Below, piece after piece: positions 1 through 37,068 of a stretch of 64,000 nucleotides of DNA. The notes beneath the pieces are model-generated. The model was not told where the DNA came from, searched no databases, and was given only the letters and a program-made list of their open reading frames with translations. Position 1 is the first letter of the stretch; the number at the start of each line of letters is the position of its first letter. The DNA comes from an uncultured candidatus Porisulfidus sp. (GTDB lineage: Bacteria > Pseudomonadota > Gammaproteobacteria > Poriferisulfidales > Oxydemutatoraceae): contig OZ244052.1 in NCBI GenBank assembly GCA_965215125.1, positions 1,920,001 through 1,984,000 of the forward strand. The letters are read 5' to 3'. A program made the position numbers and the translations under genes.

Positions 1-3000
1 TTCAACACAGAAAATCTCTATAACTACACTAGGGCCGAAGTCAAAGCAACCGCAAACAACATCACTGCCGGCGGTTTGGTCGGACAGTTAGCTGGTACAT
101 CGGTAGATACCGCAAACTACTGGGATGCCGACACCTCGCCGTCGGTCACCGCCTCCGCTGCCGGTACCAGCTTAACGACATCACAGCTAATTACTCCGAT
201 AGCACCGAATGCAAAAAACCCTGCCCGATATACCGACTGGAGTACCGATAACTGGGATTTCGGCACCCCCGAACAATACCCGATACTCAAACACGCACCG
301 GGTCCCGATGACGACGGCGACGGCAAAGGCGATGCCTGCGGCACCGAATTTACCCCCGATTGCGACGCATTGTTATTACCCGAACCACGCTACGGTTTCA
401 TAGAACTTTCGCTGGGCGGCGACGACTTTTTGGATCCGCCTTTGGACCCCGAAAATCGCTATTATAACGGCACCGTCGTGGATGCCGACGGCGACAATGT
501 CATCCGGCTGGTACAGACCACGAAGAATCCCGATAGCACGGTCAGGGTCTATATCGGAGATTCCGAAACACCGCTGGGCGCGGAATTTCGAAGTGGTCAG
601 GAATCCGAAGCCATTCCCTTGGTTCTCGGAAGAAACCTCATTAATGTAGAAATCGACCCCAAGCCCGGTATTGCGCCTTTTAGATATACGCTCGATCTCC
701 TCTTTGAACGACCGACGATAGAGATTAATTATTTGGAAGACCTTGTGGCAATAAACGATGCCCCGAATTTCAACTACAGACTCGCCAGAAATTTGGATTT
801 TGAGGACAATACCAGCTATCGCGATTTGAGCAATAGAGACAGATGGATTACAAATTTCGGTAGCATGGGAGGTTGGTCGCCGATCGAGAATTTTAACGGT
901 ACCTTCGACGGCAACGGCTATACGATATCCAATCTACAGATAGTCGGCCCTCGTAGCGGCAGCCCGGAGAATATAGGTTTGTTTGCGACGATTGCTGCCG
1001 GCGGCATCGTGCGTAATTTGGGGTTGTTGAACCTTAGAATAGATATCCCAATCAGACTAGACGCTAACGGCGGTGGGATAGCGGCAATCAATCGCGGCAC
1101 CGTGATCAACAGCTATGCGGTTGGCACTATCGAGGGAGCGAATAGCGGTATTTTGGTCGGTCGTGGCGAGCGTGGTAGTCATATTATTAACAGCTATGCG
1201 GTCGGCACTTTATACGAAAGTGAGCGATTAATGCGATTCAACGGCGGGTTGGCAGGTACTTGTCGAGATTCTACGATTGTCAACAGTCATGCACATGTAG
1301 AAATAGCTAATAGAGTTATTACTCAAGCGGCTCGCGATGTCGGTGGCTTGGTCGGCAGCAGTTGGAATTGTAATATACACAACAGCTTTGCGGTCGGTCG
1401 GTCGGATAAAGTCAATAATCAAGACGATCGGAGTTTCGGAGGATTGATTGGGGTCGTGGAGCGGGGCGGTACGGTTCAAAATAACTATGCTTATGTTGAT
1501 ATGGCCGAAAACTTAAATGCCGGTGGATTATTGGGGGATGTTCTCAATTCAGATATGAATACCGATATCGATATTTTTAATAATTACGTAATCGGCACTG
1601 CGGCATCCGGTTTTTTGCGTCAATATACTGAATCCGGACCGGGCGAACTTAGGAGCGGTGCTAATTATTGGAATATAGACACCAGTCGGACAGTGCTTAC
1701 AGACTCAAATGTCAACGCAAGCGGTCAAACCACCGAGGCACTGCAACTACCGACCTCGGCGGACGGCATCTATGGACAATGGGACGAAGAGAATTGGGAT
1801 TTCGGTACATCCGAGCAATATCCGATCCTCAAATACGCCGCACACCCCGACCCCGATGCCGATGTGCAGACATGCCGTCGTGCCGACGACGATTCGACAC
1901 GGCTACCGGTTTGCGGAGACTTGATCGCACCGCAACTCCGCTACGGCTTAAAAAATCTGGACATAGCCGACGGCACATTGACCCCGGCGTTCACCGAAGA
2001 AAACGGCGAACACTACGGCAGTTACTTGGGTACCGCTTTTGCCGATCCCGACGCAATCCGATTGATCCCGACCGCATTCGACGACCGTGCCGAGATTAGA
2101 ATCTATCAAGTCGACGGCAGAGGCGAACGGCAGTTGGGCGGTGCCTTCGCTAGCGGTGGCATCAGCGAGCCGATTACACTGAACCAAAGGTCTTTCTCAA
2201 GATACGCAAGTGCCATAAACTACTTGATCGTCGAGATAGACCCCGAAGACCCCGCCGCGCCGACCGTCAGATACCCGGTTTATCTGATGGCAGTAACACC
2301 GATCAGGTATTTGGAAGATCTTCACGCATTAGATCAACCGGGTAACCAGTTTAGAAATAGTGTGTTAGTCCGCGACTTGGATTTTGAAGATCCCGACAGC
2401 TATCGCTCGGGTGAAGTGAATAGAGTCTGGACAGTAGTGGACTTTAGTCAACCGAGTATGGGTTGGCGGCCTATCAGACGTAATCTACGAGGTATTTTTG
2501 ACGGCAACGGCCATACCCTATCCAACTTGAGAAGCAGCGGTTTTAACAGTCAAGCAGGCCTTTGGAATGTTGTTGATCCTTCCGGCATTGTACGCAATTT
2601 GGGTTTGCTCAATGTAAAAATTGCTAATAACACGATTAGTAATGGCGGTGCGTTGGCACTACAGAACGCAGGCACGATTATCGGAAGCTACGCAGTGGTT
2701 GATATCAGTACTTCCAGAAATCAAGTACCTACTATCGGCGGTTTGGTCGGCGATAATCGAGGCCGGATTTTTAATAGCTATGCGGTAGGTAACATTACCG
2801 TAGTAGATGGTCCAGAAGGAACACCTAACATTAGCATTGAAAATATCGCCAGTATCGGTGGTTTGGTCGGCTTCAGTTCAAATGATGCTTTTGGCATCTT
2901 GAATGCTCCGGAAAAAAGAGGTCTGATCGTCAACAGCTATGCCGATGTTTCGCTATCCACGACCGACTTCAGAGCCGGCGGCTTGGTCGGTCTATGCGAC

Positions 3001-24000: not shown

Positions 24001-24500
24001 TTGGTCGGACGCCTCAACGCGACGACCGTTGATAATAGTTATGCAAGCGGCGATGTAAAAGGATATAGAAATGTGGGCGGGTTGATCGGCTTGGTGAGAG
24101 ACTCTAATTCGGGCATCAATAATAGCTATGCCAACGGTGCGGTTAGCGGGGATGCGCGAATAGGTGGCTTGGTCGGTAATGCAAACGGTTCGATATCAGA
24201 CAGCTATGCAATCGGCAACCTGAGCGGGCGAGCGGATGTCGGTGGCTTTGCCGGTATCGGATCTGCATCATTGCAAAACAGTTATTGGGATACCGACCGT
24301 AGCGGTACAACAAGCAGTGTTGTTGCAAGAGGCTTTGCATCCGAAGTCCTTAAATCGGCAACTGCGCCAAGCATGACAGCAAACGGAGTGTATTACACCT
24401 GGAGTTCGGATAACTGGGATTTCGGTGTCGACACGCAGTATCCTGCCCTTAAATACAGAGACGCTAGTTGCGGAACTGCAACACCATCATCGAATTGCGG
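1..24500 (+). repeat. 14 complete plus 1 partial GLUG beta-helix modules, each followed by one or more Ig/cadherin-like spacers, usually via a Cys-containing linker
   Basis: Module starts at ~712, 2293, 3898, 5419, 6952, 8530, 10177, 11971, 13363, 15265, 16765, 18523, 20803 and 23014. Each ends in a WDFG/WNFG/WHFG/WFFG-type motif (degenerate in two modules) followed by YP. Confidence 0.85.
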
Positions 24501-30500: not shown

Positions 30501-33500
30501 GAGAAACTATGCGGTGAGGATTTCTACTCGAACGTTGGTGGTCACTCCGGTGATACCTATGGATAGCAATATTGGATATACAATTTCTGAAGGAAGTACT
30601 ATGCTAACGCCAAATGCCTCTGCATCCATCACGATTCCCGAAGGGGAAACCAGAGCTATCACTATAACACTGCAAGCACCGAACGGAACGATGAATAGCT
30701 ATAGGGTGCAAGCGACTCGGGAGCGGAGCGACAACGCCAACTTGGGTAATCTGCAGATATCGTTTGAAACTACATTGTTCCAATTCGGCAACCTAGCGAC
30801 AAGTGCGAACTATGTCTATACGGTTCCTAATCGTATAACCGATATTACATTGTCGGCGGGAGTAGCACAAACCAGCGCAACGATTATAGATTTTAGAGTA
30901 AACGGTAATCGAGCGAGTGGTGTGTCTTCGGATAAAACCGAGATAGATCGGACTATTCCCTTAAACGAAGGTGAGACTAAAGAAATCACGATTAAAGTAC
31001 TCGCTCAAGACCTAGAGACGAGCAAAACTTATACGATCGGTGTAACCCGTAGGCTCAGTGGCAATACCGATTTGAGCGAAGCCCCGATAATCATCATCCC
31101 GGGTGTCGGCGAGACTACGGCAACCGCAGTTTCGGGAAGCGATACCGAATATACTGCGGTGATTGATAGAAATGTAACCTTGTTCTCGGTATCGGCGACG
31201 GCAGCACACTCCAGTGCGACGGTAACGATCAGTATCGATGATGGTTCGGATGCAGTCGGTGGTCGGACTGCAACGAAGACCGGTATCCCGATCAGTGTTC
31301 CGACGAGACTTTCCGACATTGCGCTGGCACGGCAGAAGATTACTATAGTCGTGCGGGCACCGGATAGAACCACCACCCGAGAATATACTTTGACGGTAAG
31401 CCTTGCCGATAGCACGGATGTGCGCTTGGCTTCGCTGAGCGTGGGTGGGTTTGTGCTACCGGCGGGTAGCGACGGGACTTACAATGCATCTTTACTCGAG
31501 GATGCGCCAAATCCGCAAGTGGCTGCAAGTGCGATCGATCTATTTGCAACGGTGACGATTACCGATACCGAAAACGGCACGCTACTCGTTGAAGGAGGTC
31601 AAAGAGCATCAGGTACGATTACCTTAGAGACCGGAGAGACTAAAATTTTAAGCATTAAAGTGACCGCACAAGATAGCATGACGAGTCAAACTTATACCTT
31701 GACGATGACGCGTGCCGAGAGTTCGGATGCGAGCTTGGCTTCACTGGGTGTATCCAATATCAGTCCGAGTAATATAGTGTTGCGAGATAACCTATTTACA
31801 TATACTGCAACCTTAGCCGAGGATGTAGCAAATACGACCGTGACCGCAGTTGCCGGCAATCGATTTGCAATGGTGACGATTACCGAGATTACCGAGAACA
31901 ACATGCCGTTCGCCGCAGGAGTTGAAAGAGCAATAGGGAGAGCTACCCTAGACCGGACCGGAGACACTAGAACCTTCGAAATTAGAGTGACCGCACAAAA
32001 CCTTGTAGCGATGAGCCGGATCTATACTTTGGAAGTGACGCGAGCTAAAAGTAGCGATGCGAGCTTGAGGTCGCTTACCGTCGAGCGTGCCGACCCGGAA
32101 GAGTTGGTATCGGAAGCCGACCGAGACGAGTATACTGCGACCGTAGGTGTGGATGTGGTAAATACGACCGTGACCGTAGTTGCTAACGATGAATTTGCAA
32201 CGGTGACGATTACCGATACCGAAAACGACACGCTGCTCGCTGAAGGAAGGCAAAGTACAGCAACTAGGATTACTTTAGAGAAGACCGGTGCTTCCAGAAC
32301 CCTGCAAATCGTAGTGACTGCGCAAAACGACATGACGAGTACTTATACTTTGACGGTGGTGCGCGCCGAGAGCTCGGATGCGAGCTTGGCTTCGCTGAGC
32401 GTGGAGAACACCATTTCAAGTGATTTAGAAGTGGTAGACAATAAAACCTTATATACTGCGACCGTAGGTGCGGATGTGGTAAACACAACCGTGACCGCCG
32501 TTGCAAACAATACATCTGCAACAGTGACGATTACCGAAAACGGCATACTTGTCGCCGGAGGAGATGATCGCAGGGCAGAAAGAAGTATTACTTTAGCTCG
32601 GAGAGGAGACACTAAAACCTTGCAGATTAAGGTGACCGCACAAAATGGCATGACGAGTCGGACTTATACTTTGATAGTAGCCCGAGGGGTGAGTCTGGAT
32701 GCGAGCTTGGCTTCGCTGAGCGTCGAGAACACCATTTCAAGTGATTTAGAAGTGGTAGACAATAAAACCTTATATACTGCGACGGTAGGTGTGGATGTGG
32801 CAAATACGACTGTGACCGTAGTTGCTAACGATGAATTTGCAACGGTGAGGATTACCGATACCGAAAACGACACGCTGCTCGCTGAAGGAGTGCAAAGTAC
32901 GGCAACTAGGATTACTTTAGAAGAAACCGGAGTTCGTAAAACCTTGCAGATTAAGGTGATTGCAGAGAGTCCCACGACGAGTCAAACTTATACCTTGACA
33001 GTGGTGCGTGCCGATAGCACGGATGCGAGCTTGGCTTCGCTGAGCGTCGAGAATACCATCTCAAGCGATTTAGAAGTGGTAGACAACAAAACCTTATATA
33101 CTGCAACCCTAGCCGAGGATGTGGCAAATACGACCGTGACCGCAGTTGCCGGCAATCGATTTGCGACGGTGACGATTACCGAGATTACCGAGAACAATAT
33201 GCCGTTCGCCGAAGGAGTTGAAAGAGCAATAGGGAGAGCCACCCTAGACCGGACCGGAGACACTAGAACCTTCGAAATTAGAGTGACCGCACAAAACCGT
33301 GTAGCGATGAGCCGGATCTATACTTTGGAAGTGACGCGAGCTAAAAGTAGCGATGCGAGCTTGAGGTCGCTGAGCGTCGAGAATACCATCTCAAGCGATT
33401 TAGAAGTGGTAGACAACAAAACCTTATATACTGCGACCCTAGCCGAGGATGTGGTAAATACGACCGTGACCGTCGTTGCTAACGATGAATTTGCAATGGT

Positions 33501-36000
33501 GAGGATTACCGATACCACCGATACCGAAAACGACATACTACTTGCTCGAGGAGGTCAAAGTACAGCGACCAGGATTACTTTAGAAGAGACCGGAGATCGT
33601 AGAACCTTAGACATTGAAGTGACCGCACAAGACGGCATGACGAGTACTTATACCTTGACGGTGACGCGCGCCGAGAGTTCGGATGCGAGCTTGAGGTCGC
33701 TGAGCGTCGAGAATACCATCTCAAGCGATTTAGAAGTGGTAGACAACAAAACATTATATACTGCAACCCTACCCGAAGATGTGGCAAATACGACCGTGAC
33801 CGTCGTCGCTAACGAATTTGCAACGGTGGAAATCACCTTAGACGAAGATACCGTTTCTAACGGCAATAGCGCAAGCAGACCTGTTGTTATTGATGAGACC
33901 GGTGCTTCCAGAACCCTGCAAATCGTAGTGACTGCGCAAGACGGCACGATGAGTCCGATTTATACCTTAACGATAAACCGTGCGGAAAGTTCCAATGACG
34001 ATTTAAGTGAGTTGCAGTTGCTCGATATAAACAATGTGAATCTACTGCCGGACTTTGATCCTACGAGCGAAACACAAACCTATAGGCTTACGGTTGCTAA
34101 TACGACCACCGGCACTAGAGTGGTTGCTACAGCCCATCCGAGAGCGGTAATCGAGGTCGACGTAGACGGTGTAGAGACTACCGCCACCGGCACGATTAAC
34201 AGAAAGTTTGATTTGGAAGAAGTCGAAGTAGAAAAACGAATTCGTATCGTGGTTACTCCGCAAGACCGTAGTACGCCCCGAGGCTATACCGTGTTCGTTA
34301 AGCGTGCCAGAGCGGCTGCAACGAATGCAAACTTAGCAAGTATTACACTTTCTTTGGATAGCGACACGCCTCTCCTAACATTGACATCACCCGACGAAGG
34401 TACGAGCGCAACATATTCGGCGCGTATCATGGGGACAGCCGAGCGTGAAGTCCGGACCATAACACAAATCATAGTATCGCCGCGTCCCGAAGACGGAGGT
34501 GCGACGATTAGTATAGAAGACGATGAGGCGGTATCTATGCCCGATAAAATTGTCATGTTGAAAGCTGATCTCGATACATCGGAAGCACCGATAGCTATTA
34601 AAGTCATTGCCGAAGATAGAACGACATCTGCGACTTATAGCTTGGTGATAACCCGAGTGAGCAGTTCGGATGACAAGTTAGGAAATCTTGAGTTGAGACC
34701 TCAAGGCTTGACGCTAAGTCCACCGTTTAATAGCAGTACATTGCCATACACGGTGATGGGAAATATCGGAGCAGAACTTATATTGAGTGTGACTTCCGGT
34801 TTGGGTCAGCAGATTATAATAGGAGACGATGGGACACCCCTTATCGATGCCGGTTCGGAGGCAATAACCACATCTACACCCGTTGCTTTAGAATACGGAG
34901 AGAATACGATTGAGATTTTGGTAATTGCTCAAAACCGTATAACGAGTCAAACTTATATCTTGACTGCATTTCGTCCGGTGGTTTTGGAGGATTTAGATTT
35001 GGAGGGACTCGGTGATGGCGATGCATATAGTTTTGATCCTTTTGAAAGAAACTATGCGGTGAGGATTTCTACTCGAACGTTGGTGGTCACTCCGGTGATA
35101 CCTATGGATAGCAATATTGGATATACAATTTCTGAAGGAAGTACTATGCTAACGCCAAATGCCCCTGCATCCATTACGATTCCCGAAGGGGAAACCAGAG
35201 CTATCACCATAGCACTGGAAGCATCGAACGGAACGACGAACAGCTATGTGGTGACCGCGACTCGTGAAGATAGTAGTGATACTAGTTTGCAGACATTAAC
35301 GGTAGACAACGGAATGCCTGTCATTGATACTAACGACCCGCTAAGATATCTTGTGGAATTAGCAACTAATGTAGAAAAGACGACCATAACCGCAGTTGCT
35401 AATAATACGAATGCAAGATTGACAATCGGTGAAGTAGGAAATACTCCGAGTGATCCGGATCGCTCGGTGAGTCTACCGATTACGATTGCCGCCGGAACAC
35501 ATAAAGATGTCACTATTACCGTGACCGCACAAAACGATAGTACCCAAACTTATACCGTGGCTATATCTCGTGCCTCTGCGATGGGCATCAACGACACGGG
35601 AATTAGTCTCACATTGTCCGGAATAAGTGACTTAAATCCTGATCCCAATACTACGATGGGCTACATCGGCACCCTGAGTGACAATACTACGAATACCGAA
35701 GTATCTGCATTGGCAACTGTTAACGGCATAAGTATTCAAAGCATTCGCGTGAATACGAACACCACTGAATATATCAAGGATGGCACTTCTCAAGACCTAG
35801 ATGAAAATCTTAGCGTTATTTCTAATCCTAATATCCCGGTGGGAAATGGAACCACATTTACTATCTTAGTAAGACGCAGCGATAATACCGAAGATGGCTA
35901 CACCGAAGCGGAGTATACCGTTAATGTAGAAGGAACCACAGACCCCGGTACCGGTATTAGAATCAGAGCCAAGGTGTTCTTGGAAGGTCCACTGCAATAA
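1..36000 (+). CDS. Giant repetitive surface protein/adhesin, 5'-partial, at least 11,999 aa: GLUG-motif beta-helix modules plus a cadherin-like beta-sandwich stalk
   Basis: Frame 1 has no stop from base 1 (FNTENLYNYTRAEVKATANNITAGGLVG...) to TAA at 35998-36000, so the TTG at 76 is internal. Repeated motifs LEDLxAIR, FxGxFDGNGxTISNL, GGLVG/NSYA, SYWD and WDFG..QYP run to ~24500. About 105-aa units (DASLxSL...YTAT...VTAQ...TYTL) run from ~25600 to ~35940. Confidence 0.93.
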   Translation, partial: FNTENLYNYTRAEVKATANNITAGGLVGQLAGTSVDTANYWDADTSPSVTASAAGTSLTTSQLITPIAPNAKNPARYTDWSTDNWDFGTPEQYPILKHAPGPDDDGDGKGDACGTEFTPDCDALLLPEPRYGFIELSLGGDDFLDPPLDPENRYYNGTVVDADGDNVIRLVQTTKNPDSTVRVYIGDSETPLGAEFRSGQESEAIPLVLGRNLINVEIDPKPGIAPFRYTLDLLFERPTIEINYLEDLVAINDAPNFNYRLARNLDFEDNTSYRDLSNRDRWITNFGSMGGWSPIENFNGTFDGNGYTISNLQIVGPRSGSPENIGLFATIAAGGIVRNLGLLNLRIDIPIRLDANGGGIAAINRGTVINSYAVGTIEGANSGILVGRGERGSHIINSYAVGTLYESERLMRFNGGLAGTCRDSTIVNSHAHVEIANRVITQAARDVGGLVGSSWNCNIHNSFAVGRSDKVNNQDDRSFGGLIGVVERGGTVQNNYAYVDMAENLNAGGLLGDVLNSDMNTDIDIFNNYVIGTAASGFLRQYTESGPGELRSGANYWNIDTSRTVLTDSNVNASGQTTEALQLPTSADGIYGQWDEENWDFGTSEQYPILKYAAHPDPDADVQTCRRADDDSTRLPVCGDLIAPQLRYGLKNLDIADGTLTPAFTEENGEHYGSYLGTAFADPDAIRLIPTAFDDRAEIRIYQVDGRGERQLGGAFASGGISEPITLNQRSFSRYASAINYLIVEIDPEDPAAPTVRYPVYLMAVTPIRYLEDLHALDQPGNQFRNSVLVRDLDFEDPDSYRSGEVNRVWTVVDFSQPSMGWRPIRRNLRGIFDGNGHTLSNLRSSGFNSQAGLWNVVDPSGIVRNLGLLNVKIANNTISNGGALALQNAGTIIGSYAVVDISTSRNQVPTIGGLVGDNRGRIFNSYAVGNITVVDGPEGTPNISIENIASIGGLVGFSSNDAFGILNAPEKRGLIVNSYADVSLSTTDFRAGGLVGLCDACDIRNSFARGAVVGRGPRVASIGGFVGRLQGGFSLSNNYASGSVGRTNVARGVGDGGFFGSLLTAGSLNANYSVGMTDHGFGGGRLSETALGDVPNYWNTDTATTSGTNVSINASGKTTEMLRMPTTASGIYRQWSEDNWDFGTDTEYPVLKHTLFSSRDYGRSQSCRDTVDDLRPLPVCGSLIGPTSRSILKNLTLADGRELLPAFTNNGSYSGEVVEDSDIIRLIPTAFDRQAEIRIYVIDGNGERQVGATFGSGGTSAPITLDASVINRLIVEIISTDPTVPTIRYPLYLSYRVGPTKIDSLEALNAIRNRPDGDYILTRNLDFNDDDSYEDLSNKDAWTVSDYQSPVDLGWLPIGAIRTFTGTFNGAGHTISNLQINNSDGRIDKGLFGTIGASAVVRNIGLLDVNIVDNSDANTAALVGANNGRVVSAYAQGTIVGGSRSGGLVGWSGGEIVNSHTVVSVQGQGEEIGGLVGYNEGNIGNSSAAGDVAGTTNIGGLVGHHRNGSIYHSYVNSRVSGDNGVGGLLGFASAGNISDVYTTGRIDAQRNAGGLIGSTTATVSQRSYSIAEISAMLRDDSSFGSLVGRFEGGAELRDSYFNSDRASFPIVGQRADDTQITNASALTTVDLQLEPSNMSTFNNIYGAWRQDWDFGTSVQYPILVVSPNPDRNGAKTCGTFDTPLCRTSLRGNPALSALRFLSGQQSPDVDLRYRDHIGTIVNNVAETQLLAVATDPDAQITFYLNDRQHGERTVSGTAGASSAAMTLGEDGLNRIAVEVITPAVENDPGGVDRYNLSVRFRQINSDRNGNPFIEIATLEDLDAIRDNTSRSYILTADLDFNDDNSYGDLRNRAKNKAAWTVDNFAASDDEGWQPIDNFSGEFDGNGYTIFNLQINRDTKDDQGLFAVIADEGVVRNISLFGAMIEARNNVGVLAGRNNGTVIAVDAYARIDANNTVGGLIGNSRGWVIGSNAVVVISAVDSVGGLVGSSGATIINSYASGAVIAAGNRSGGLVGENSMPSGRIINSYAETEVTGNSEVGGLVGHSTATSVITDSYAAGSVRAVAEVDSGGPYAGGLVGRLRGASTVKNSYAIAAVEPDTRQNFVGGLIGNNGNRNEAITASYWDRDTTGQTGSAGGAGSTPIILQSATSHTNSGQQNRPYYLWSERNWNFGTAEQYPTLKYAPNPDREGPPTCGSAGLPECGSPLTPQLRNSLEDLKLASTSRLVPPFDANTGRHRNSYFGSATANPIRLIPTASQDDAVINIYAADGSTLLESALASGGTSGVIFLSDDINRIVLEIVAATTATVRYPVYIRRIDDVDGDGFIDIDNLEELRAITEINNRLKNYELVRSLDFNDPDSYGSGEVNREWTVEDFNNRGDLGWQPTSFAGEFNGNGYTISGLQINRVASDNVGLFSRLDTSGTIRNLGLLNLRIKAGNNTGGLLGANSGTVINCFVIGEIEGNIRVGGLIGISRILDKMRGGVINSYAEAMVSGVSNVGGLVGENPGHKIYNSYAGGRVVGDRTIGGLVGSMVPPFTGQEVNDADAVVNSYATARVMARRDAVGGLIGVIFRGNDSLYNNTYTTGQVDGNDSAGGLIGVINLGAASLDNSYITGRVDGNSNVGGLVGRTNGTIARIQNSYVNSDENPGISLGSGSFLNSSTQTSARLRQGTAQSSAPTDVYYRWSTDDWDFGNALQYPILKYAQTTGTGFVQACGNGSDDLPECGTPISPQIHDGLQNLSVADGAELDPPFGDAHRDLSGSYFGDLSHDASTLRIIPTAKVRNATINIYVGDVGGKQTPDQQIASGTTSTPITLVNGINRIVLEIVATGRATVRYPVYLRFDTQDRNRDGIIEIANLNELYNIRHNLSGNYRLVRNLDFDDPNSYAPGRYPPGEINREWTVLNFSDPADRGWLPIGTRTSSFRGEFDADGFTIANLRINDTRGNESGLFGNIGGRGVVRNLGLLNVKIQGRGDVGGLSVVNRGRIIGTYVIGELSGGYRRNIGGLVGENAGGEIVNSYAQVTLTAYRSEANSIGGLVGVVSSGGAIVNSHAGGILEHRGLHSGGLLGSTGWGDNPMPINIVNSYAEGRVAGVNHVGGLVGNLAVDGDAVSNSYARGEVSEFAATGNANQYVGGLVGLVNKGSITDSYAANNIIESSAVQRENIQIGSLVGSLLDDESPISASYADITRSRYNFIGTTSTLNSFNRTTAQLQTPTGRGESPGDTYHQWSETDWNFGDSTSYPILEYAAATDVLGGRNAACRSRTMNEATRLPVCGELISPPFENSLSSLNLGPGASLNPPFGDANRQLFGYYSGAVRFDLNSTQTDVSLFPVARKRNSTIDIYVNGVRSQQGLATNRLSRPIELTEGITFIVLVITSPGLEPVRYPVYLSYDPRDRNGNGFIEINNLEQLYDIRADIDTLTADYELTRDLDFNDPNSYASGIVNRDWTVERFDSPTDFGWEAIGGIVDDDCDDFDSRCFGGTFNGNGHTISNLSINGDADYQGLFVGIAGTGNVRALGLANLKIQAGDTVGGLAGRNEGTVIDSFAIGELSANDRVGGLVGINEGTVMDSYAIGELSANDSTGGLVGIGEGTIIGSYAITELSANNDVGGLVGESIGKILNSYAGGVITGNTGVGGLVGTATDMSGSGMIVNSHAGGIIHAFGDYVGGLVGRIGFGPGNEDFRIINSYANSLISSDGQYVGGLVSDSASGKFTISNSYAGGRVTESAFGNVTSIGGLAAVTLPDDSITDSYAVTEIYPQSAAVSKGSLVGNHSGRLASVYSDAARNPYIGITGRGGGQIEASSIRTTAEMQSATGPSTTQTGVYYNWDANAWDFGSRNEYPIPRYVSGPDADACGTDDTPSCGTPISPQTRYRTRGRGLRALNVEEGALYPRFDIDEQNRVGVYVGAVVADNAVAQLIATTMEANATYSVYLGPREIPLLSDARSGTTTTEITLSAREATRIVIEVKGTETEGTETVRYILYLKHLNNALAVDADHDGLIEIDSLEDLNAIRFVADSSGYRANARTASNSAGCPNGLCRGYELTGNLDFNNPDDYENIDNRARWHDDGSWPPIGNPVRFFTGTFNGNGFAISNLKVRANGGLFGVIGSDREAEAADVRNFIRGLGLLNVDIQGDVVGGIARYCNRCSIDNTYVVARIKGTESAAGFVNEYSISSTSSPDIFIHNSYFIGRVDARHIAGGFIGSGDFHPRISDSYVIGRIIAGSSVAQVGSFAATGLDNFNIARSFAAASATRAGVPQGLSGGGIGNGSIEATYIDGDIAGLQTAEPADVQSTEALQIPTDAIGIYSRWRTENWDFGTREQYPAIKYSQCEETASAFCGSVFPYQGGLLKSLKLPENIGINPPFDFATFNYEIAVPLGQKILQFTPESFGTSATIAISVDGVMLAEVPSGRIVPRITLDTRGETIVDVVVKESTDRTSYRYRFTVFNLDVRIYTTAIDADDDGLIDVGTPEQLNAMRYSLDGSFYRERADGARVYCRSGCRGYELNADIDLTGVDWQPIGGSDAGFNTHFNGNGYTLSNLTWNAPVSDDIGLFHTLGENARIEDIRLIDPQIRITQVDSPDRLIGTLAATNFGIIFNSRVENATIDIQRSSTNTSVGGLVADNRGVIVNSGVAGGSMITASDPGNLAGLVHLNSNGVIHGSFATISISAKNSNRFRAAGLVNTNNNQSVISDSYAQGDIAFDFGGSRAGLVERNNASIENSYSTVNIRGNGGGLVESRFSDSTIRNSYWDADTSGQTTGLAGTSRTTVELQSGVAQNNNIDTVYYQWNPEHWHFGNSDQYPTVLYQDGNLDLCREPTETQLQRCAGLVSGGLSEADRAIVCRDRLPGNRVDPPYCGALVPSQARVGLIGLELSAGVELVPEFSPEVESYELNVDSGTTTFDIMPTAYYQTDTVSLITGSDERIVADNTSRRLDIADIDDFSLAVRAAATTRTRLYTVVLRETTVPEAVRMGIQISALDGLNLFPDFSQDITDYGVTAYSDTSHMRLLVSAMDTVAGFIPDVEVTGAGGMDAELNSPLTQLTKFFNVPLNDVGMTTITVTVSSGFRYRFEYTINVDRLPFSIPINSKGDRLADVDGNGLLEVGTVEQLDAMRYQPNGSGYRASGTVSEINSGCPPSGCIGYELVADLDFLDESSYDNAQLTMPLWTTGAGWQPIGSRTNPFTSRFVSSDRTISNLSIRRRGSDDIGLFGVIRGAVIINGIGLINVEIAGNNRVGALVGVDLGGNSRIINSYASGTVRAFGDDADGLAGVHRGNAGGLVGVHRGRIVNSFVSGLVTAPDGAAGGLVGSLLSGNIDNSYAGGAVIGRFAGGLVGSMQTAVITNSYAAVSIGGNTGGGLVGIVARGGASTIDDSYAVGRNSSGDAKGLASEEQAGLLTVTTSYWDSDVANVSTSDGGGSGRTTANLRQTISNTGIYAGWAEEHWWFVPREQYPRLRYQSQCETSGSTTRPDCGELLPGQYTGLMRLTFSQEVLHLEPQFNPRIFDYALTLKADETQFTMTPTWYNNNQVGISDTSGTNSSQKVSSGQESASITVPVNGLNIMVRATGTTIINNEDKNLIYRISVSRHPYLTLGDVDEDDDGLIEVRDFRDLNAMRYQLDGSGYRASTTAEKISVGCPSSTGCIGYELATSIDFARRNWNPIGASGAGGFSCDHPTSECFAAIFDGNRDLGYEISNLSIAASDADNVGLFAYLSAAAGVRNLVLSNISLQGSEGVGGIAGYSAGTLENNGVDGTVVGKAYLGGVVGYNDGLIRENFADVVVGGDTSGENDNIGGLVGYNTDRIFNSYAIGSVSGDNNIGGLVGRSERGGHIINSHANNRVSGINHIGGLVGRNDDNSRILSSYALGEVSGNTGVGGLVGLNFGILRDTYASGNIVASDRVGGLVGDNRNADNNAIGNSYAIGRVRGDTEVGGLIGYNTGTGNITDSYWDMNTSGLTQSAGGSGQTTARLRIDIIGSGTTIFGSSNSIFLHWDLAQWQSSRNQYPILKYANYSIDGSRTCRFVDSRILQQSPELVPDDLAICGQSTNILQPRTFQSYGLNSLLSLGIPQLSPQFSPTRLRYRVDVEFDEAVERSLLLSLVPTAADPDAIIDIAYNGEQSTVASGAGEEIVLDPASEDDIIITVRTPSPDAKSNPKSVVEYVLELDYFVVDLAREIVIAVNREVDSDGDGLIEINYLEDLDAVRNDVDGIVYRYTFPNGISVRSATGCPTTPTVGCRGYELIRDLDFLDPDSYLSGTVNLDWVNRWDPIANTEFSECNLGTCFNGIFDGNNHTIHNLRIGADVGKDAAGLFHSIGRTGRVSNLSLRNVTIENLAPRTVQVGSLAGHSYGTISNTRVINGKILIDQPPIPDDRGGVGRDRRGVGGLVGTNEVGGIVRYSSAHIDVSTHIDDSTMAGISDIRTGGLVGSGRTGGKIFNSYAIGTVTGDFIAGLVGFRDNVNNVVENSYMMVKLNIIGRENPNSNLIGTISGISVDSPFLTFRDAIKNSYVAGRFVNNSGLATNRFFLNIFTPRPGLGDNDKYLFFDELSSGRAGATDSYWDENFGNINRNIASRRMTAQLQMPTTSTGIYENWSTADWDFGTASQYPTLRAADGELAPEVWDMLVDDIAPTRALILPDEDMFDQFIFRGRQLIVDGNRLLAPITLDTDPAVADIEVEIYCDRFRCRLADPDDSTSVILGTTDTRQIRFTARRGNRVSDYNFDVAYDELFLNNVDNISVDEGDTFDVIGEYPDKLGLSTTPNFTIKWSQITETDPSIALVDTNRLNLGLRPQANVVAESSDHSIVTFRLEVGIGDQAHIVRDISARINKVNNAPPTGSLALQLADNRRIRFVVLSQPNDIDGGLGQPTLQFQRRLVGDRSGIWDNFQLPESPPNLYTAPLEARSYEYRIVASYRDGQGYSESLITNSVTIISTQDPDGDFVLNDDDIDDDNDGLIEIRCLEDLNRVRYELDGRGYKDSEDDALNTTGCPIGGCIGYELVENLDFEDDASYCTSDTDTTARDALKAAWTVAQGNFGNPRDLSWQPIGGVFSAVFDGNNNKISNLQINSSVPTTQTNVGLFSVIGANAKVENLQLEDVAIKGFVVRRNIGGIAGTLRRDGLVFNSYVTGNTERNNTNKVISGDLGIMGGLIGLNRGNILNSYAQINIRLDARSGTLPPVTSDVKFAGGLVGENSGGGKILNSYYANGEILGPCAVGGLVGVQRSENRNTLSLTSEIRNSYVFAARVQLNRAESRCGNWINNTVYAGGLVGFSADSPITNSYVGNGTRAFRDGNRNTCSSSQIALQNFSVDGDPITRNIAIRLGGFAGRVNNNDITDGYWEYNGYQCSSGPNPYYGLADSPLRARHGNDELIFPTAPNAAPLDGQCEDLRLGTGTNSKYSCTTYTNWSTDDWFFGSSNEYPFIRHAVGLVRNNPGCDFDDNTSLPECGALLPGRPRSDLNVRDNPVPGLSPPLQVDIPPQARIRYAVDGDTLTELNAPNTITIDEGETLTLDALRSISANNTPLNYLWRQASGPMLLLEPVAGTEIQLRAADDFVAADVDSAQVVIWLELGERNNPDLFTLTSITLNVIKRNSQGSLTVDWLGDAVLYLSEINDPDGGPFTDVEYQWRRGSDGRFVDIIGANELSYRVPPEARDSQYRLQVGYTDGQGYFNRVSFDAQPYSTIADLVDKDRDGLIEISTIEQLSAIRHQPDGSGYKAEMNGASDSSGCPGGTCRGYELVRNLDFDDRASYSSTATDVIEQWDNWNGIDNFNTVFEGNELTISNLKIIGEANSSNIGLFGRTLQAAEIRNISLAQASVQGANRVGMLAGNFTGRAITDSHVLSGDVVVTGEIGGCLIGRAGGNATISDSSVNCTITGYNTVGGLVGESSAGIERSFATGAVVELPLSNLSRTIEIGGLVATLLDGRIEDSYAAVDIRSQSTNNLIFSSSGVGGLVGRSEFGASINNSYAIGDVINVGDARIDLVGGLVGDAGGSISNSYATGNVDVSSGLQSLNTGGLVGRLNATTVDNSYASGDVKGYRNVGGLIGLVRDSNSGINNSYANGAVSGDARIGGLVGNANGSISDSYAIGNLSGRADVGGFAGIGSASLQNSYWDTDRSGTTSSVVARGFASEVLKSATAPSMTANGVYYTWSSDNWDFGVDTQYPALKYRDASCGTATPSSNCGEVLLRQRLGLRDIRLSQLGATRQAQIVPTFDATIDKEDPDATAVRDYRLYVDSNALEFGINAVANSRDSVIAVDGGPVSAGTVDYSPALDFSTTTVVKILVSEPYEIEGKENLKVEYRLTLNAFPMVDDIQYQAALDEQSAPLNASVPIREGHFIVLTSRVSDINGNDLSYRWTVDRTQVSLLDESTLVGTVVGGSGNIILPFYLTDDFVAADRSQEMVRVSLTVQDSEGISMTEELSLPVMKHNNGTIGGISTPTQIGFTYTAPTVTATQLAEDPDRGGDIDSIGYQWQRQLDGVWSDIAGETDPRYTVSGSIADFYRVFIGYTDGQGYRVEVPSAPAQASSGLLLRALPEAGADVIGNLTIRFRAENLREAEGEMRDGFFITTTKYTVPTETADITVTAFGGGEDIRVNDMPIGIDSERTLPLDFGNNEITVQWRDEEGSMERTFTITVRRAYDTTLPSLRIAWQGQTAIDFTETPSQSDTDYELSEFIPNNIQTVSVFARISEAVNIAIDLNGDNVGNVSTSTSTEAGAVVARATFGGLVLGENTIRFVISSPDGLQSQEYTATVWRRYNARLEALSTSATEEQLSPPFSSGTTEYSARTANHRVSERIDFSGAAGTTVVVNNVARGSTSTLPLRIGDNTAELIVMAPRERDTTYTVIVHREYSLNLRSLSLANAVELVPTLVPTRDRYITENRYTATVPDTTTQVTVTFATDLGIRSLLSAPIRPVITENNTIRNNDTDDRIEITASVPLKFDENPILIRTSALGEQRVTTLTVTRLRGKNPDLQPQPDGLVPETADSISYDEDTRRYTIDVPNRIADLRLTLRPQDPNVSSITLGNRQLDLRGLRDTGSVDGIISDLIEGGVVEVGLKIIAHNGINSQTYTVRINRALSSNDNLDYVQLSQFNEGQDSAAASYRIDSGQFIGIGLLSQQSVRNEVDKIKLLPITEHRDATVRITKVGDTPEVVYLDAKGSGSTPSDFINLDLGQNDIKIRVTAPDRIESTTYTLSITRNLSDNTELETAPSVSGNPAQLVRRGVYIAELARNTTSFSVEATALHPSATVTINSMGGGRTASLTNIPINVDMPEQEFTIVVQAQNRITTQPYVLTVSLIRSSDASLASLRVSNTSPSNIVLQDNIDKYNATLAEDRFVTTVTAVATDRFATVKIIENGITIMSGDQNVSRRIFIFETGSSRDLQVEVTAQDMTTRTYTLTITRAESSNNCLSAIAILNRDGNQLRNRNIRCDDTNPSFDIANSVAQILVRPTAEDRRATIKVHAPGDTVGERVRSGANSTRPITVPEGGTTTITIVVTAQNDETRPYTVAVNRAESSNADLSDLQLLDINNVNLLPDFDPTSETQTYRLTVPNTTTGTRVIAAAHPKAGIRVDIDDVDAIATGTINREFDLEEVEVEKRIRIVVTSQDRSTTRGYTVFVKRARADRNNANLASIAISLDNDTPLLTLTSPDEGTSATYSARIMGTAEREIQTIEQLIVSPRPEDGGATISIDGGTVESMPDKTVMLTAPLDTPEEPPIAIKVIADDKTTSAVYSLQITRVSSADVGFATVVVGGTELDIDDRSTRYTASIGERTTNTIVSVRTRHSQATMEITLGSDTVSTGNRASRRVVIDDTGGRERLQIKVIAQNRTTSRTYTVRVERDRSSDTSLASLSAENTRASDLEVVDNKTLYTATLAEDVVSTTVTAVAKDRFATVKIIENGITIASGSREVERNIFIPETGGSRTLQVEVTAQNRAQQTYRLTVERDPSTDDRLYRLVLRPSSGGAVPIVTRPTTTTEYRARFNFNVTGVRVQASAHPNADKIEVFAPGSSAGEEIAQGGISSSISLTEGEPSVIRILVTAQNGETTRPYVIRVTRALNPDDDLRGLGLISEDVRLDRPFTRNNRLYRVLGNIGEELTVTVTSGSGQRIIVDDDEMPLIEAGSEPITSAFSRSLEYGENTIEILVIAQNRTTSQTYTLNAFRPVVLEDLDLGGLSDGDAYRFDPFERNYAVRISTRTLVVTPVIPMDSNIGYTISEGSTMLTPNASASITIPEGETRAITITLQAPNGTMNSYRVQATRERSDNANLGNLQISFETTLFQFGNLATSANYVYTVPNRITDITLSAGVAQTSATIIDFRVNGNRASGVSSDKTEIDRTIPLNEGETKEITIKVLAQDLETSKTYTIGVTRRLSGNTDLSEAPIIIIPGVGETTATAVSGSDTEYTAVIDRNVTLFSVSATAAHSSATVTISIDDGSDAVGGRTATKTGIPISVPTRLSDIALARQKITIVVRAPDRTTTREYTLTVSLADSTDVRLASLSVGGFVLPAGSDGTYNASLLEDAPNPQVAASAIDLFATVTITDTENGTLLVEGGQRASGTITLETGETKILSIKVTAQDSMTSQTYTLTMTRAESSDASLASLGVSNISPSNIVLRDNLFTYTATLAEDVANTTVTAVAGNRFAMVTITEITENNMPFAAGVERAIGRATLDRTGDTRTFEIRVTAQNLVAMSRIYTLEVTRAKSSDASLRSLTVERADPEELVSEADRDEYTATVGVDVVNTTVTVVANDEFATVTITDTENDTLLAEGRQSTATRITLEKTGASRTLQIVVTAQNDMTSTYTLTVVRAESSDASLASLSVENTISSDLEVVDNKTLYTATVGADVVNTTVTAVANNTSATVTITENGILVAGGDDRRAERSITLARRGDTKTLQIKVTAQNGMTSRTYTLIVARGVSLDASLASLSVENTISSDLEVVDNKTLYTATVGVDVANTTVTVVANDEFATVRITDTENDTLLAEGVQSTATRITLEETGVRKTLQIKVIAESPTTSQTYTLTVVRADSTDASLASLSVENTISSDLEVVDNKTLYTATLAEDVANTTVTAVAGNRFATVTITEITENNMPFAEGVERAIGRATLDRTGDTRTFEIRVTAQNRVAMSRIYTLEVTRAKSSDASLRSLSVENTISSDLEVVDNKTLYTATLAEDVVNTTVTVVANDEFAMVRITDTTDTENDILLARGGQSTATRITLEETGDRRTLDIEVTAQDGMTSTYTLTVTRAESSDASLRSLSVENTISSDLEVVDNKTLYTATLPEDVANTTVTVVANEFATVEITLDEDTVSNGNSASRPVVIDETGASRTLQIVVTAQDGTMSPIYTLTINRAESSNDDLSELQLLDINNVNLLPDFDPTSETQTYRLTVANTTTGTRVVATAHPRAVIEVDVDGVETTATGTINRKFDLEEVEVEKRIRIVVTPQDRSTPRGYTVFVKRARAAATNANLASITLSLDSDTPLLTLTSPDEGTSATYSARIMGTAEREVRTITQIIVSPRPEDGGATISIEDDEAVSMPDKIVMLKADLDTSEAPIAIKVIAEDRTTSATYSLVITRVSSSDDKLGNLELRPQGLTLSPPFNSSTLPYTVMGNIGAELILSVTSGLGQQIIIGDDGTPLIDAGSEAITTSTPVALEYGENTIEILVIAQNRITSQTYILTAFRPVVLEDLDLEGLGDGDAYSFDPFERNYAVRISTRTLVVTPVIPMDSNIGYTISEGSTMLTPNAPASITIPEGETRAITIALEASNGTTNSYVVTATREDSSDTSLQTLTVDNGMPVIDTNDPLRYLVELATNVEKTTITAVANNTNARLTIGEVGNTPSDPDRSVSLPITIAAGTHKDVTITVTAQNDSTQTYTVAISRASAMGINDTGISLTLSGISDLNPDPNTTMGYIGTLSDNTTNTEVSALATVNGISIQSIRVNTNTTEYIKDGTSQDLDENLSVISNPNIPVGNGTTFTILVRRSDNTEDGYTEAEYTVNVEGTTDPGTGIRIRAKVFLEGPLQ
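10603..10836 (+). repeat. Three tandem 78-bp (26-aa) GLUG rung repeats
   Basis: Units (N/G)EGT(V/I)xxS(F/Y)AIxELSANxxxGGLVG start at 10603, 10681 and 10759, with high DNA similarity. Confidence 0.85.
28480..29169 (+). repeat. Intragenic direct repeat X, copy 1 (two cadherin-like domains); copy 2 at 33979-34665
   Basis: Near-identical DNA and protein: LQLLDINNVNLLPDFDPTSETQTYRLTV ... TPLLTLTSPDEGTSATYSARIMGTAERE ... ITRVSS. Confidence 0.9.
30211..30720 (+). repeat. Intragenic direct repeat Y, copy 1; copy 2 at ~34756-35264
   Basis: Shared LEYGENTIEILVIAQNR...AFRPVVLEDLDL...FDPFERNYAVRISTRTLVVTPVIPMDSNIGYTISEGSTMLTPNA, near-identical at DNA level in the core. Confidence 0.88.
31711..33978 (+). 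repeat. Seven tandem 312-330 bp cadherin-like units with long identical DNA tracts
   Basis: Unit starts at 31711, 32041, 32362, 32683, 33007, 33337 and 33667. SLSVENTISSDLEVVDNKTLYTAT occurs in five of them. Confidence 0.9.
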
Positions 36001-36014
36001 AAAGTGGGGTTGAA

Positions 36015-36042
36015 GTGGCAGGCTTCGCCTGACGGGGTGGTT
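36015..36042 (+). repeat. Partial copy of the dispersed REP-like element (gtggcaggc-ttc-gcctgacggggtggtt)
   Basis: Matches 37143-37170 and the two copies within 61003-61194, apart from the 3-nt hairpin loop. Confidence 0.75.
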
Positions 36043-36079
36043 CACAATCACTATGTACTCCATAATTACGCAAGCCACC

Positions 36080-36118
36080 TATCCGCCCGAATGTGCCGGC
36101 ATATTTTCCCGGCGGATA
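36080..36118. terminator. Stem-loop downstream of the giant gene, possible terminator
   Basis: tatccgcc (36080-36087) pairs with ggcggata (36111-36118), with an inner aatgtgcc/ggcatatt stem. No U-tract on the + strand. Confidence 0.3.
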
Positions 36119-36135
36119 AAATGACAAGTATTCTA

Positions 36136-36144
36136 TGCTATACT
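36136..36144 (+). promoter_or_regulatory. Putative extended -10 promoter element (TGcTATACT) for the hydrolase gene
   Basis: TGn followed by TATACT about 60 bp upstream of ATG 36205. Strong RBS AAGGAGGT at 36192-36199. Confidence 0.4.
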
Positions 36145-36204
36145 ACCTTCTATTTACGATAACTGAATATTTAACCGACAACTTAAGACTCAAGGAGGTG
36201 CATT

Positions 36205-37068
36205 ATGGATGTCAATATCAATCTCAACGGATTAGACTTAAAAATCAACGTTGAAAAAGCCGGTTCAGGCAAAACTGCTTTATTAATGGTTCATGGGATT
36301 CCGACAAATGCGCGTTTGTGGCGACATTTGCAGGAACACCTGAAAGATGACTACACCAGCTATGCGATGGACATGGTCGGCTATGGAATGTCCGATATGC
36401 CACTGGATGATTTTGAACATACACTGACTAACCAAGCGGAAGCCATCCGCGCGGTGATAGAAGCCCTAGACCTTAAAGGCAAAGTAATCCTCTTGGCACA
36501 CGACCACGGCGGCGGTGCCGCACAAATTTTGGCATCGAAGTACTGCGACCATATAAGTCGTCTGGTGCTAATCAACCCGGTAGCATTTGACTACTGGCCG
36601 GTGCTTGAAGTAGAAGGCTTTAATGGCTTGGTGGGTGCTAGCGACGAAGTTCTGCAAGGTGCTATGGCGCAGGCTGCTGCAGGCTTCGGTATGCTACTAC
36701 GCACCGGTAGCCACGACAAAATTGCTTTTACCGACCAAAATGTCAAGCAAAACTACTTGCAGTTTTGGGCTCGCGGACCGGGCTTAACCGGCTTCAAGTC
36801 TTTGGTTAAAGTCTGTAGCCAACCCGGCAATCAAGAAACCCTGTCGGTAGATCACTCTCAAATCAAATGCCCGACGCTAATCTGCTGGGCATTACACGAT
36901 GCGTGGATGCCCAAGGAATCCGGGATACGCCTCAAAGCTGCAATCGCAGGTCCGGTGAGACTCGAGTTCATAGAAAGAGCAGGGCATTATGTGCTGGAAG
37001 ACCGACCCGATGCAGTCGCAGCCCATGTGCATGACTTTATCACCGAATGGGAAGGCATCTCTTTATAA
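36205..37068 (+). CDS. Alpha/beta hydrolase, epoxide hydrolase/dehalogenase-like (Asp nucleophile)
   Basis: HGIP oxyanion motif, DMVGYGMSD, nucleophile elbow AHDHGG, catalytic His in AGHYVLED, RBS AAGGAGG. Confidence 0.88.
   Translation: MDVNINLNGLDLKINVEKAGSGKTALLMVHGIPTNARLWRHLQEHLKDDYTSYAMDMVGYGMSDMPLDDFEHTLTNQAEAIRAVIEALDLKGKVILLAHDHGGGAAQILASKYCDHISRLVLINPVAFDYWPVLEVEGFNGLVGASDEVLQGAMAQAAAGFGMLLRTGSHDKIAFTDQNVKQNYLQFWARGPGLTGFKSLVKVCSQPGNQETLSVDHSQIKCPTLICWALHDAWMPKESGIRLKAAIAGPVRLEFIERAGHYVLEDRPDAVAAHVHDFITEWEGISL

Follow-up and report, generated by a model that had tools for sequence, protein, structure and literature searches.

How uncultured sponge symbionts hold on to their host, or are recognised by it, is an open question on which an exceptionally long gene may bear. 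A stretch of 64,000 nucleotides from contig OZ244052.1 (assembly GCA_965215125.1, positions 1,920,001 to 1,984,000 of the forward strand), which belongs to an uncultured Candidatus Porisulfidus and is called here the window, begins with a reading frame that runs through its first 36 kb without a stop codon. Is this frame a single gene, what is its product made of, and how could such a product be brought to the cell surface and held there? The product is one of the largest bacterial proteins known and, on the sequence evidence assembled below, is probably a giant bacterial surface adhesin with a sorting-type signal at its C-terminus. This signal, a tail of 14 residues, is its most unusual feature and was absent from an earlier, sequence-only reading of the same DNA, which had described a multivalent adhesin made of GLUG beta-helix modules on a cadherin-like stalk. 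In a genome of probably only 2-3 Mb, judged from its relatives, at least 36 kb are devoted to this one protein.

Reality and length of the open reading frame

The open reading frame (ORF) covers positions 1 to 36000 on the forward strand, with 11,999 codons and a TAA stop at 35998-36000, and is open at the 5' edge of the window. The remaining five frames contain 289 to 732 stops each over the same 36 kb, and the probability of a stop-free frame of this length, calculated from base composition, is about 1e-259. The GC content at third codon positions (GC3) of the ORF is 0.49-0.54, compared with 0.42-0.53 in the neighbouring genes (excluding a sulfotransferase array described below). Since no stop interrupts the 11,999 codons and GC3 is near that of the neighbours, the ORF is a genuine coding gene, and the stop-free frame that had been seen by the sequence-only reading is real.

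An ortholog of the gene is represented in the databases by two proteins, both recorded with a longest contig of 1,278,805 bp. Residues 1027-5344 of P0247 align colinearly with window residues 1-4315 (91.4% identity), and residues 1-7497 of P0018 with window residues 4379-11905 (78.6% identity). P0247 finishes in a short out-of-frame tail at window residue ~4,316 and P0018 begins 63 residues later; this split gene represents either a true decay in that relative or indel or sequencing errors in its assembly. P0247 carries 1,026 residues, amounting to two modules, upstream of its match to the first residue of the window, and the two proteins sum to 13,162 amino acids (aa). Because the ortholog adds these residues, the window protein is probably at least about 13,000 aa long and made of at least 16-17 modules, with a start still further upstream. 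The earlier figure of at least 12,000 aa is correct and probably low.

Judged by sequence, the closest genome to the window is a metagenome-assembled genome (MAG) of Candidatus Oxydemutatoraceae. In its chromosome OZ244779.1 (locus L002) the DNA of the stalk is 82.7% identical over 6,873 nt, and the junction made up of the tail, the stop and a downstream alpha/beta-hydrolase gene is shared at 93.9% nucleotide identity. Over 2,233 codons, the stalk and its syntenic L002 copy have a synonymous divergence (dS) of 0.283 and a ratio of nonsynonymous to synonymous divergence (dN/dS) of 0.53; the neighbouring hydrolase gives a dS of 0.280 and a dN/dS of 0.04. The near-equal dS values fit vertical orthologs of equal age.

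Two scenarios would deprive the frame of its meaning. One possibility is that paralogous GLUG and cadherin-like genes were collapsed or joined by the assembler. Many paralogs of the family are present in these genomes, and the copies of the stalk DNA are up to 86.6% identical (over 516 nt), which could favor such an error. Nevertheless, the 24-kb module region is nearly devoid of DNA self-similarity (9 of the 32 self-matches, reaching at best 80% over 180 nt), exact repeats in the whole gene are no longer than 117 nt, and L002 has the identical succession of stalk, tail, stop and hydrolase. Above all, the two independent database ORFs are colinear with the window protein at 91% and 79% identity, with their modules in the same order, so that a chimera is largely excluded and seems very improbable. 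The other scenario is that of a relic, a decaying or silent gene whose frame is open only by history. The ortholog broken by at least one frame break and the fairly high dN/dS of the stalk would agree with it. Yet, 36 kb without a stop would not survive unselected at a dS of ~0.28, dN/dS is below 1, the tail is nearly invariant among paralogs and one module, M14, shares 98.6% identity with its ortholog; a relic is hardly credible.

Architecture of the protein and fold of its modules

Self-comparison splits the protein in two parts: residues 1 to ~8,250 consist of long units that share 30-48% identity, and the sequence from ~8,500 to the end of tandem units of ~108 aa that share up to ~81%. Modules and stalk units were counted with hidden Markov models (HMMs) built from the giant protein itself. 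There are 14 complete modules (~480-620 aa, typically about 520 aa) and a partial one at the window edge (aa 15-115), the array ending at residue 8,168, and the stalk has 30 beta-sandwich units (aa 8,588-11,906). The two-part layout of diverged beta-helix modules followed by sandwiches that had been read from the letters is thereby recovered, together with its counts of 15 or more modules and about 30 sandwiches. The Pfam scan that had been proposed as a check gives both families above their cut-offs: Glug (PF07581, cut-off 20.5 bits) with E values of 3.8e-39 (130.8 bits) in residues 1-4000 and 3.1e-34 (115.4 bits) in residues 4001-8000, and Cadherin-like (PF12733, cut-off 24.2 bits) with an E value of 1.8e-193 (628.1 bits), in 28 stretches of the last 3,999 aa. 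The protein belongs to the former family by its score and its predicted right-handed beta-helix, and to the latter by its score and its tandem units.

Each module is made up of a cadherin-like beta-sandwich followed by a GLUG beta-helix. The module consensus (alignment A1) begins with a Cys-containing border, the cadherin-like sandwich and an acidic DxDxDGLIEI element, and continues with rungs of the form GGLVG..N.G.I.NSYA and a closing SYWD...WDFG..QYP.LK. The module region holds 69 of the 71 Cys residues of the protein, mostly as close pairs; since these pairs cluster at the module borders, their pattern would fit an oxidising, extracytoplasmic location.

All the parts lie on the forward strand and the limits of the complete modules are those of the HMM. 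The array opens with M0 (1-345), the C-terminal piece of an upstream module, whose aa 15-115 correspond to HMM positions 414-516 and which continues in P0247. It is followed by M1 (352-1893, aa 118-631, sandwich and helix), M2 (1900-3525, aa 634-1175), M3 (3532-5070, aa 1178-1690), M4 (5023-6609, aa 1675-2203), M5 (6595-8181, aa 2199-2727), M6 (8158-9780, aa 2720-3260), M7 (9802-11592, aa 3268-3864) and M8 (11572-12999, aa 3858-4333). The next modules have their counterparts in P0018: M9 (13003-14466, aa 4335-4822) is 89.9% identical to its residues 1-443, M10 (14548-16407, aa 4850-5469) 90.2% to residues 471-1080, M11 (16387-18039, aa 5463-6013) 89.8% to residues 1074-1616, M12 (18142-19806, aa 6048-6602) 75.4% to residues 1651-2208, M13 (20800-22305, aa 6934-7435) 82.3% to residues 2549-3029 and M14 (23008-24504, aa 7670-8168) 98.6% to residues 3259-3758. 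M9 to M14 and their P0018 counterparts thus stand in the same order at 75-98.6% identity, whereas the best partner of each module within the protein reaches only 29-41%. By this comparison each module position is kept individually between species; therefore, the modules appear to be differentiated, which argues against a recent local amplification.

The regular succession is interrupted by insertions at aa 6603-6933, 7436-7669 and 8169-8587, which have a 'YQW.R...YTDGQGY' element in common and only sub-threshold Pfam matches, PKD-like or cadherin-like. Insert 1 (19807-20799), between M12 and M13, matches no Pfam family and ends in the element '...YRIVASYRDGQGY', which recurs in the two others. 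Insert 2 (22306-23007), between M13 and M14, contains the form 'YQWRR...YTDGQGY' and a PKD-like match (PF22352) with an E value of 6e-4, below the cut-off. The third is the linker region between array and stalk (24505-25761), with a weak cadherin-like match and the form 'YQWQR...YTDGQGY'. The stalk itself follows at 25762-35718, its 30 cadherin-like units having a period of ~108 aa, and then a last diverged sandwich remnant with a short linker (35719-35955, aa 11907-11985). No sequence relatives were found in the PDB for the stalk units or for the linker and insert region.

The structure prediction that had been suggested for each module was run for one of them, M5, with the other 13 modules as alignment. 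The AlphaFold2 (AF2) model of aa 2199-2727 (pLDDT 86.1, pTM 0.81) shows the expected combination: a beta-sandwich at its residues 16-117 and, at residues 187-463, the long series of regular short strands of a beta-helix. Compared with the PDB, the profile of the 14 modules finds the N-terminal domains of IgA1 proteases (6xjb, 7jgj, 6xja, 7uvl, 7uvk and 3n6z) with E values from 1e-16 to 1e-11. A Foldseek search with the M5 model puts the same IgA1 protease structures on top, with 3n6z, 6xjb and 7uvl at a probability of 1.00. Sequence and predicted fold concur: the module helix is a right-handed beta-helix and a homolog of the N-terminal domain with which IgA1 proteases bind their substrate, a domain without catalytic function. 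In Streptococcus pneumoniae, this helix is described in the accessible part of PMC7695701 as a self-folding, non-catalytic unit with gate-like motion that contacts the IgA1 Fab. Since it contacts the Fab, the only characterised relative of the module helix would be a protein-binding unit.

The resemblance to the M26 IgA1 metalloproteases (S. pneumoniae 6XJA/6XJB, Gemella haemolysans 7UVK, Bacteroides ovatus 3N6Z) concerns the sequence and the fold of the helix. Contrary to these proteins, the giant lacks the M26 catalytic domain and, in its 11,999 aa, any HExxH or LPxTG motif; it has a different C-terminal end, contains the helix at least 15 times, each time after a cadherin-like sandwich, and comes from a Gram-negative host. 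It does not belong to M26, as only the model of the N-terminal region (PF05342, cut-off 27.7 bits) matches, and weakly (25.6 and 30.4 bits), and the NCBIfam ZmpA model gives 57 bits for a cut-off of 3000.

The C-terminal tail

The window protein ends with GIRIRAKVFLEGPLQ, directly followed by the stop codon. The tail consists of the last 14 residues, IRIRAKVFLEGPLQ-COOH (35956-35997, aa 11986-11999). We propose for it, as a pattern of our own and not a curated family, the 'FLEGPLQ-tail' [IL]x[IV]Rx[KR][VIL]FLEG[PAL]L[QRK]-COOH at the extreme C-terminus, with which the window protein agrees. A motif of this type ends 48 of the 150 best matches to the module profile and 46 of 86 large relatives. 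Its position is strict: in 306 fetched proteins it occurs 114 times, of which 111 are at the extreme C-terminus, three within the last 13 residues and none elsewhere. The 518 ORFs of the fetched loci contain 49 cases at the C-terminus, a single one directly behind a signal peptide and none inside a protein.

A collection of 185,579 species was scanned with the back-translated motif followed by a stop, in the variant K-V-F-L-E-G-[PA]-L only. This gave 55 sites, 52 of them in four Candidatus Oxydemutatoraceae or Candidatus Porisulfidus genomes: 33 in OZ244779.1 (a 2.37-Mb chromosome), 2 in OZ245010.1, 11 in OZ241323.1 and 6 in CBDAVG01. The three others lie in Bacteroidota ORFs of 9-58 aa and are taken as chance occurrences (the rough expectation being ~4). 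The ORFs that bear the tail range from less than 130 aa (five of them, possibly fragments) to more than 3,342 aa, and the tail is spread over unrelated passengers: subtilisin-like proteases with a P-domain, Calx-beta proteins, cadherin/Big_9 proteins, Ig-like giants, GLUG giants, and a family of proteins of 180-330 aa with clear signal peptides, in which the one member scanned has no Pfam family.

When 16 stalk-type C-termini are aligned (A2), hardly any variation is seen in the last 14 residues: 9 of the 14 columns are invariant, in addition to R188 and R190; the identity of the last nine residues is partly forced by the scan pattern, that of the I-R-I-R part is not. The 186 residues that precede the tail are only 24-45% identical to those of the window protein, and a linker of variable length separates the last sandwich from the tail. 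Such a pattern might have been the footprint of a repeated DNA element, a candidate that was rejected: third codon positions of the tail vary freely, all three stop codons occur and the conservation stops at the stop codon. Since the codons vary synonymously and the conservation ends at the stop, selection acts on the tail peptide.

Strictly terminal, passenger-independent, restricted to one lineage, present many times per genome and selected as a peptide, the tail behaves like a cargo signal. In this it resembles the signatures of LPXTG/sortase, PEP-CTERM/exosortase and GlyGly-CTERM/rhombosortase and the C-terminal domain (CTD) of the type IX secretion system (T9SS), all of them short, conserved, strictly C-terminal, confined to certain lineages and carried by dozens of unrelated secreted proteins in a genome. 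Sortase-type signals are composed of a signature, a transmembrane helix and a basic cluster, and the T9SS CTD measures 80-100 aa. The tail is different: it has 14 residues, is followed by neither a transmembrane helix nor a basic cluster and is far shorter than the T9SS domain. The window protein has no match to a curated model of known C-terminal sorting domains, no LPxTG and no hydrophobic stretch past the motif. Its last 110 aa retrieved no family from NCBIfam or Pfam (E<=0.1 and E<=1), and four strings of the tail motif have no occurrence in the literature searched; as far as these searches reach, the tail is undescribed.

A tentative interpretation, which we find possible without giving it the greater weight, is that IRIRAKVFLEGPLQ-COOH serves as cargo signal for a sorting or anchoring system of sponge-symbiotic Gammaproteobacteria that is not yet described, by which cargo would be carried to the surface and held there. 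The tail could act as a free amphipathic beta-strand, added as a strand onto an outer-membrane receptor or a secretin-type machine. In that case, the cargo exported by Sec would extend from 20-kDa proteins and subtilases to adhesins of more than 1.3 MDa, and no cargo of the system larger than the window protein would be known. The shared tail makes of otherwise unrelated hypothetical proteins a defined surface and secreted proteome that is open to testing. With its help the cargo set of any MAG can be predicted, the machinery sought by phylogenetic profiling and the retention or removal of the tail checked in metaproteomes.

Two observations in other loci concern the tail. On three Candidatus Porisulfidus contigs, an operon of PilN-like, PilP, secretin (PF00263) and type II secretion ATPase (T2SSE) genes converges on the 3' end of tail-bearing giants (L013 2149-7430, CBDAVG010000002 893742-899056 and one copy in OZ241323.1). 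It may be a candidate export machine for the tagged proteins, and the adjacency could also be plain synteny. The other observation is a gene of L020 (5784-9905, reverse strand) that lies just downstream of a tagged GLUG gene. Its 1,373-aa product has two FGE-sulfatase/PvdO-like domains, and the motif, here VKVRAKVFLEGAL, immediately follows the signal peptide. Among the 518 locus ORFs this is the only case away from the C-terminus, a placement that would suit a terminal strand able to work from one end of a protein or the other.

Relatives, proposed display at the surface and genomic context

The module design is widespread. At E<=1e-3 the module profile matches 115,205 cluster representatives, of which 36,074 remain at E<=1e-30. 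Counted with our HMM, 8-12 full modules are present in many of the closest large relatives, and the earlier statement that one or a few helices are usual for GLUG proteins is not borne out. The longest of the 150 best profile matches measures 7,822 aa and the longest of 89 matches of 5,500-17,500 aa, which do not include the window's own full-length entry, 7,908 aa. No paper on the GLUG proteins of sponge symbionts was found in the literature searched, in which only five papers name a GLUG motif, domain or repeat at all. The giant is a very large new member of a family that is abundant in databases but unstudied.

Complete relatives share one order of parts: a signal-peptide-like N-terminus, a module immediately after it, more modules, an optional cadherin-like stalk and the tail. 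P0190 (7,236 aa) and P0184 (7,908 aa) have this complete design, and P0022 (5,753 aa) combines 4 modules with 33 stalk units. In all stalked relatives (for instance P0022, P0199 and P0195) the stalk stands between the modules and the tail. Signal peptides were judged by inspection and by a crude hydrophobic-run test, which is passed by 21 of the 36 tagged ORFs of the fetched loci that are complete from stop to stop; among the 150 best profile matches it is passed by 31 of 48 tagged and 70 of 102 untagged proteins, and is thus non-discriminating there.

Beside these proteins, 19 large GLUG proteins (2,562-7,286 aa, 94,269 aa in total) apparently lie on one contig of 2,964,232 bp. If they do share it, ~9.5% of its DNA encodes the family, and related genomes would appear to devote up to about a tenth of their DNA to it. 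Other contigs of 2.2-2.9 Mb apparently carry 6-7 paralogs each, of ~5,800-7,200 aa.

What could such a protein do? Taken as a whole, the data are best explained, in our judgement with good likelihood, by a Sec-exported multivalent adhesin fibre of a gammaproteobacterium of the sponge-symbiont type, tethered by its C-terminus. The giant would be exported by Sec, and the tail would be the recognition or tethering signal that brings it to the cell surface and holds it. The stalk of ~30 cadherin-like sandwiches would act as a spacer, and at least 15 differentiated beta-helix modules would offer their surfaces, well away from the cell, for the binding of ligands of the host or the matrix. Since the stalk always stands between modules and tail in the stalked relatives, the modules are expected to point outwards and the tail end to stay at the cell. 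With typical sizes of ~4 nm per sandwich and 5-6 nm per helix, the extended length can be estimated at a few hundred nanometres. Of the adhesin proposed by the sequence-only reading, the two-part anatomy stands, the helix homology is of a binding type and the position of the stalk beside the tail fits modules displayed away from the cell; adhesion itself and any ligand are parts that we infer.

Several points weigh against this explanation. The N-terminus of the giant is outside the window, an exact search of the genome collection with the first 60 nt of the window gave no match, and the putative signal peptide is deduced from relatives; P0247 starts within a module and has no signal peptide. 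Gene calling divides the P0247/P0018 ortholog into two ORFs or more, the frame breaking at window residue ~4,316, and the dN/dS of the stalk (0.53) indicates moderate constraint only. The model of the last 200 aa is weak (pLDDT 61), with residues 182-200 unstructured (pLDDT ~33) and unpacked on the last domain. To our knowledge, there is no known outer-membrane route for a Sec-exported protein of such a size. No partner protein was found for the tail, and the only recurring candidate machinery, the PilN/PilP/secretin/ATPase operon, is present in Candidatus Porisulfidus loci only and not in the window. Finally, besides the IgA1 proteases, Foldseek also retrieves isopullulanase, GH28 exopolygalacturonase, P22 tailspike and Pel3 (E values from 3e-4 to 2e-2, TM-scores of 0.15-0.22).

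These last matches open the possibility that the modules are enzymes, pectate-lyase-type helices that cut polysaccharides of the sponge matrix or of algae, the giant being then a multi-catalytic depolymerase. A tail-bearing exoproteome that includes subtilases would suit such a degradative secretome. Nevertheless, the best matches in both sequence and fold are the non-catalytic N-terminal helices of IgA1 proteases, the TM-scores to the enzymes are low, and neither a glycosidase or lyase Pfam family nor HExxH is detected anywhere in the 11,999 aa. Since the best homologs are non-catalytic and no catalytic family was found, an enzymatic role is a lesser and rather improbable reading. Alternatively, the giant could be released or become part of a structural matrix, such as a sheath, an S-layer-like coat or a biofilm scaffold, in which case the tail would signal export, be removed and tether nothing. 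It is true that the tail also ends small proteins and proteases with no obvious need for tethering and that it is predicted to be unstructured. Yet, in stalked relatives the stalk always separates the modules from the tail, a polarity that would be understandable with the tail end kept at the cell, and a matrix protein seems unlikely. The tethered adhesin fibre is the reading that we retain.

Such a fibre has its nearest counterparts in the giant RTX adhesins of the type I secretion system (T1SS), such as SiiE and those of the LapA and ice-binding types, which are also long surface fibres with tandem beta-sandwiches as a spacer for the binding region. The polarity of the giant is reversed with respect to them, its binding modules being N-terminal and its stalk C-terminal. 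T1SS substrates are not known to have Sec signal peptides. The giant does not belong among them, as the complete relatives have signal-peptide-like N-termini and its 11,999 aa contain no RTX nonapeptide (GGxGxDxUx) and no RTX or HemolysinCabind family in the Pfam scan; because the relatives have Sec signal peptides, its tail would also differ from T1SS signals. Concerning the type V secretion system (T5SS), there is no C-terminal barrel domain, the protein ending 14 residues past a beta-sandwich and linker. Regarding its two-partner branch (TPS), the first module of the complete tagged relatives adjoins the signal peptide, the giant's own N-terminus being outside the window; a few distant, untagged matches are named filamentous haemagglutinin by their sources.

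By its size, the protein belongs with the giants of a recent preprint (West-Roberts et al., bioRxiv 10.1101/2023.11.21.568195), in the accessible part of which proteins of more than 10,000 aa are termed 'large'. It shares their size class and extracellular repeat architecture, but GLUG and cadherin are unmentioned in that part of the text. Pseudomonadota and Gammaproteobacteria are not among the phyla given there as rich in such genes, and of the bacterial proteins seen outside those phyla the giant is one of the longest. Giant1-5 of Apilactobacillus kunkeei (PMC12863079) and the giants of green-sulfur epibionts (10.64898/2026.03.19.712371) are, from the available portions of these sources, comparable in size class, repeat architecture and symbiotic context; their domain content differs.

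The affiliation of the window supports the earlier guess of a host-associated symbiont: the closest genome is that of a Candidatus Oxydemutatoraceae, a family placed by the NCBI taxonomy in the Gammaproteobacteria, order Chromatiales, and the tail is otherwise found in Candidatus Porisulfidus. The description of Oxydemutator thiolithooxidans reportedly goes back to Nguyen et al. 2023. This species is presented, in the part of PMC11685487 at hand, as a sulfur-oxidising symbiont of the sponge Stylissa, and Candidatus Porisulfidus serves as outgroup to SUP05 in the corresponding part of PMC9123188.

Directly downstream of the giant, the alpha/beta-hydrolase gene (36205-37068, forward strand) serves as a synteny anchor. 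It corresponds to 10145-11005 in L002 and to 9055-9915 on the reverse strand in L026, from a Candidatus Porisulfidus MAG; the proteins are 97% and 98% identical, respectively, with a dN/dS of 0.03-0.04, and in all three places the gene comes directly after the stop of a tail-bearing gene. The window and L002 clearly represent the same syntenic locus, to which L026 may belong as well. The hydrolase was considered as a tail-processing enzyme and is kept only as a syntenic neighbour, all its NCBIfam matches being far below the cut-offs. No promoter-like or terminator-like sites were found at 35900-37400, and Rfam and tRNA scans of the window gave no matches. The rest of the window contains ordinary chromosomal genes, including uvrB, serS, mutL, miaA and zapE.

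Three other features of the window are worth recording. The genome, which is related to those of sulfur-oxidising symbionts, has at 37370-45272 a cofactor cluster of the tetrahydromethanopterin (H4MPT)/methanofuran type. Among its genes are those of an H4MPT-linked C1 transfer pathway protein (TIGR03123, above cut-off) and a 4-HFC-P synthase, MfnD/E/F-like genes, as well as DUF447, a DUF6513/dihydropteroate-synthase-like gene and a PabB-like gene. The cluster is followed by the sulfotransferase array (45389-51428), five paralogs (PF13469/PF00685) with a GC3 of 0.37-0.40, compared with 0.42-0.53 in the neighbours. An IS256-family transposase gene (46709-47941) lies between the first copy and a partial copy of 229 aa (47886-48575), and from its sequence the array looks like an acquired island with an insertion. 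Lastly, a short intergenic sequence is present twice, at 37141-37361 and 61043-61290; both copies are 82-85% similar to positions 10628-10959 of L009, on a Candidatus Oxydemutatoraceae chromosome, and this is possibly a small dispersed repeat element.

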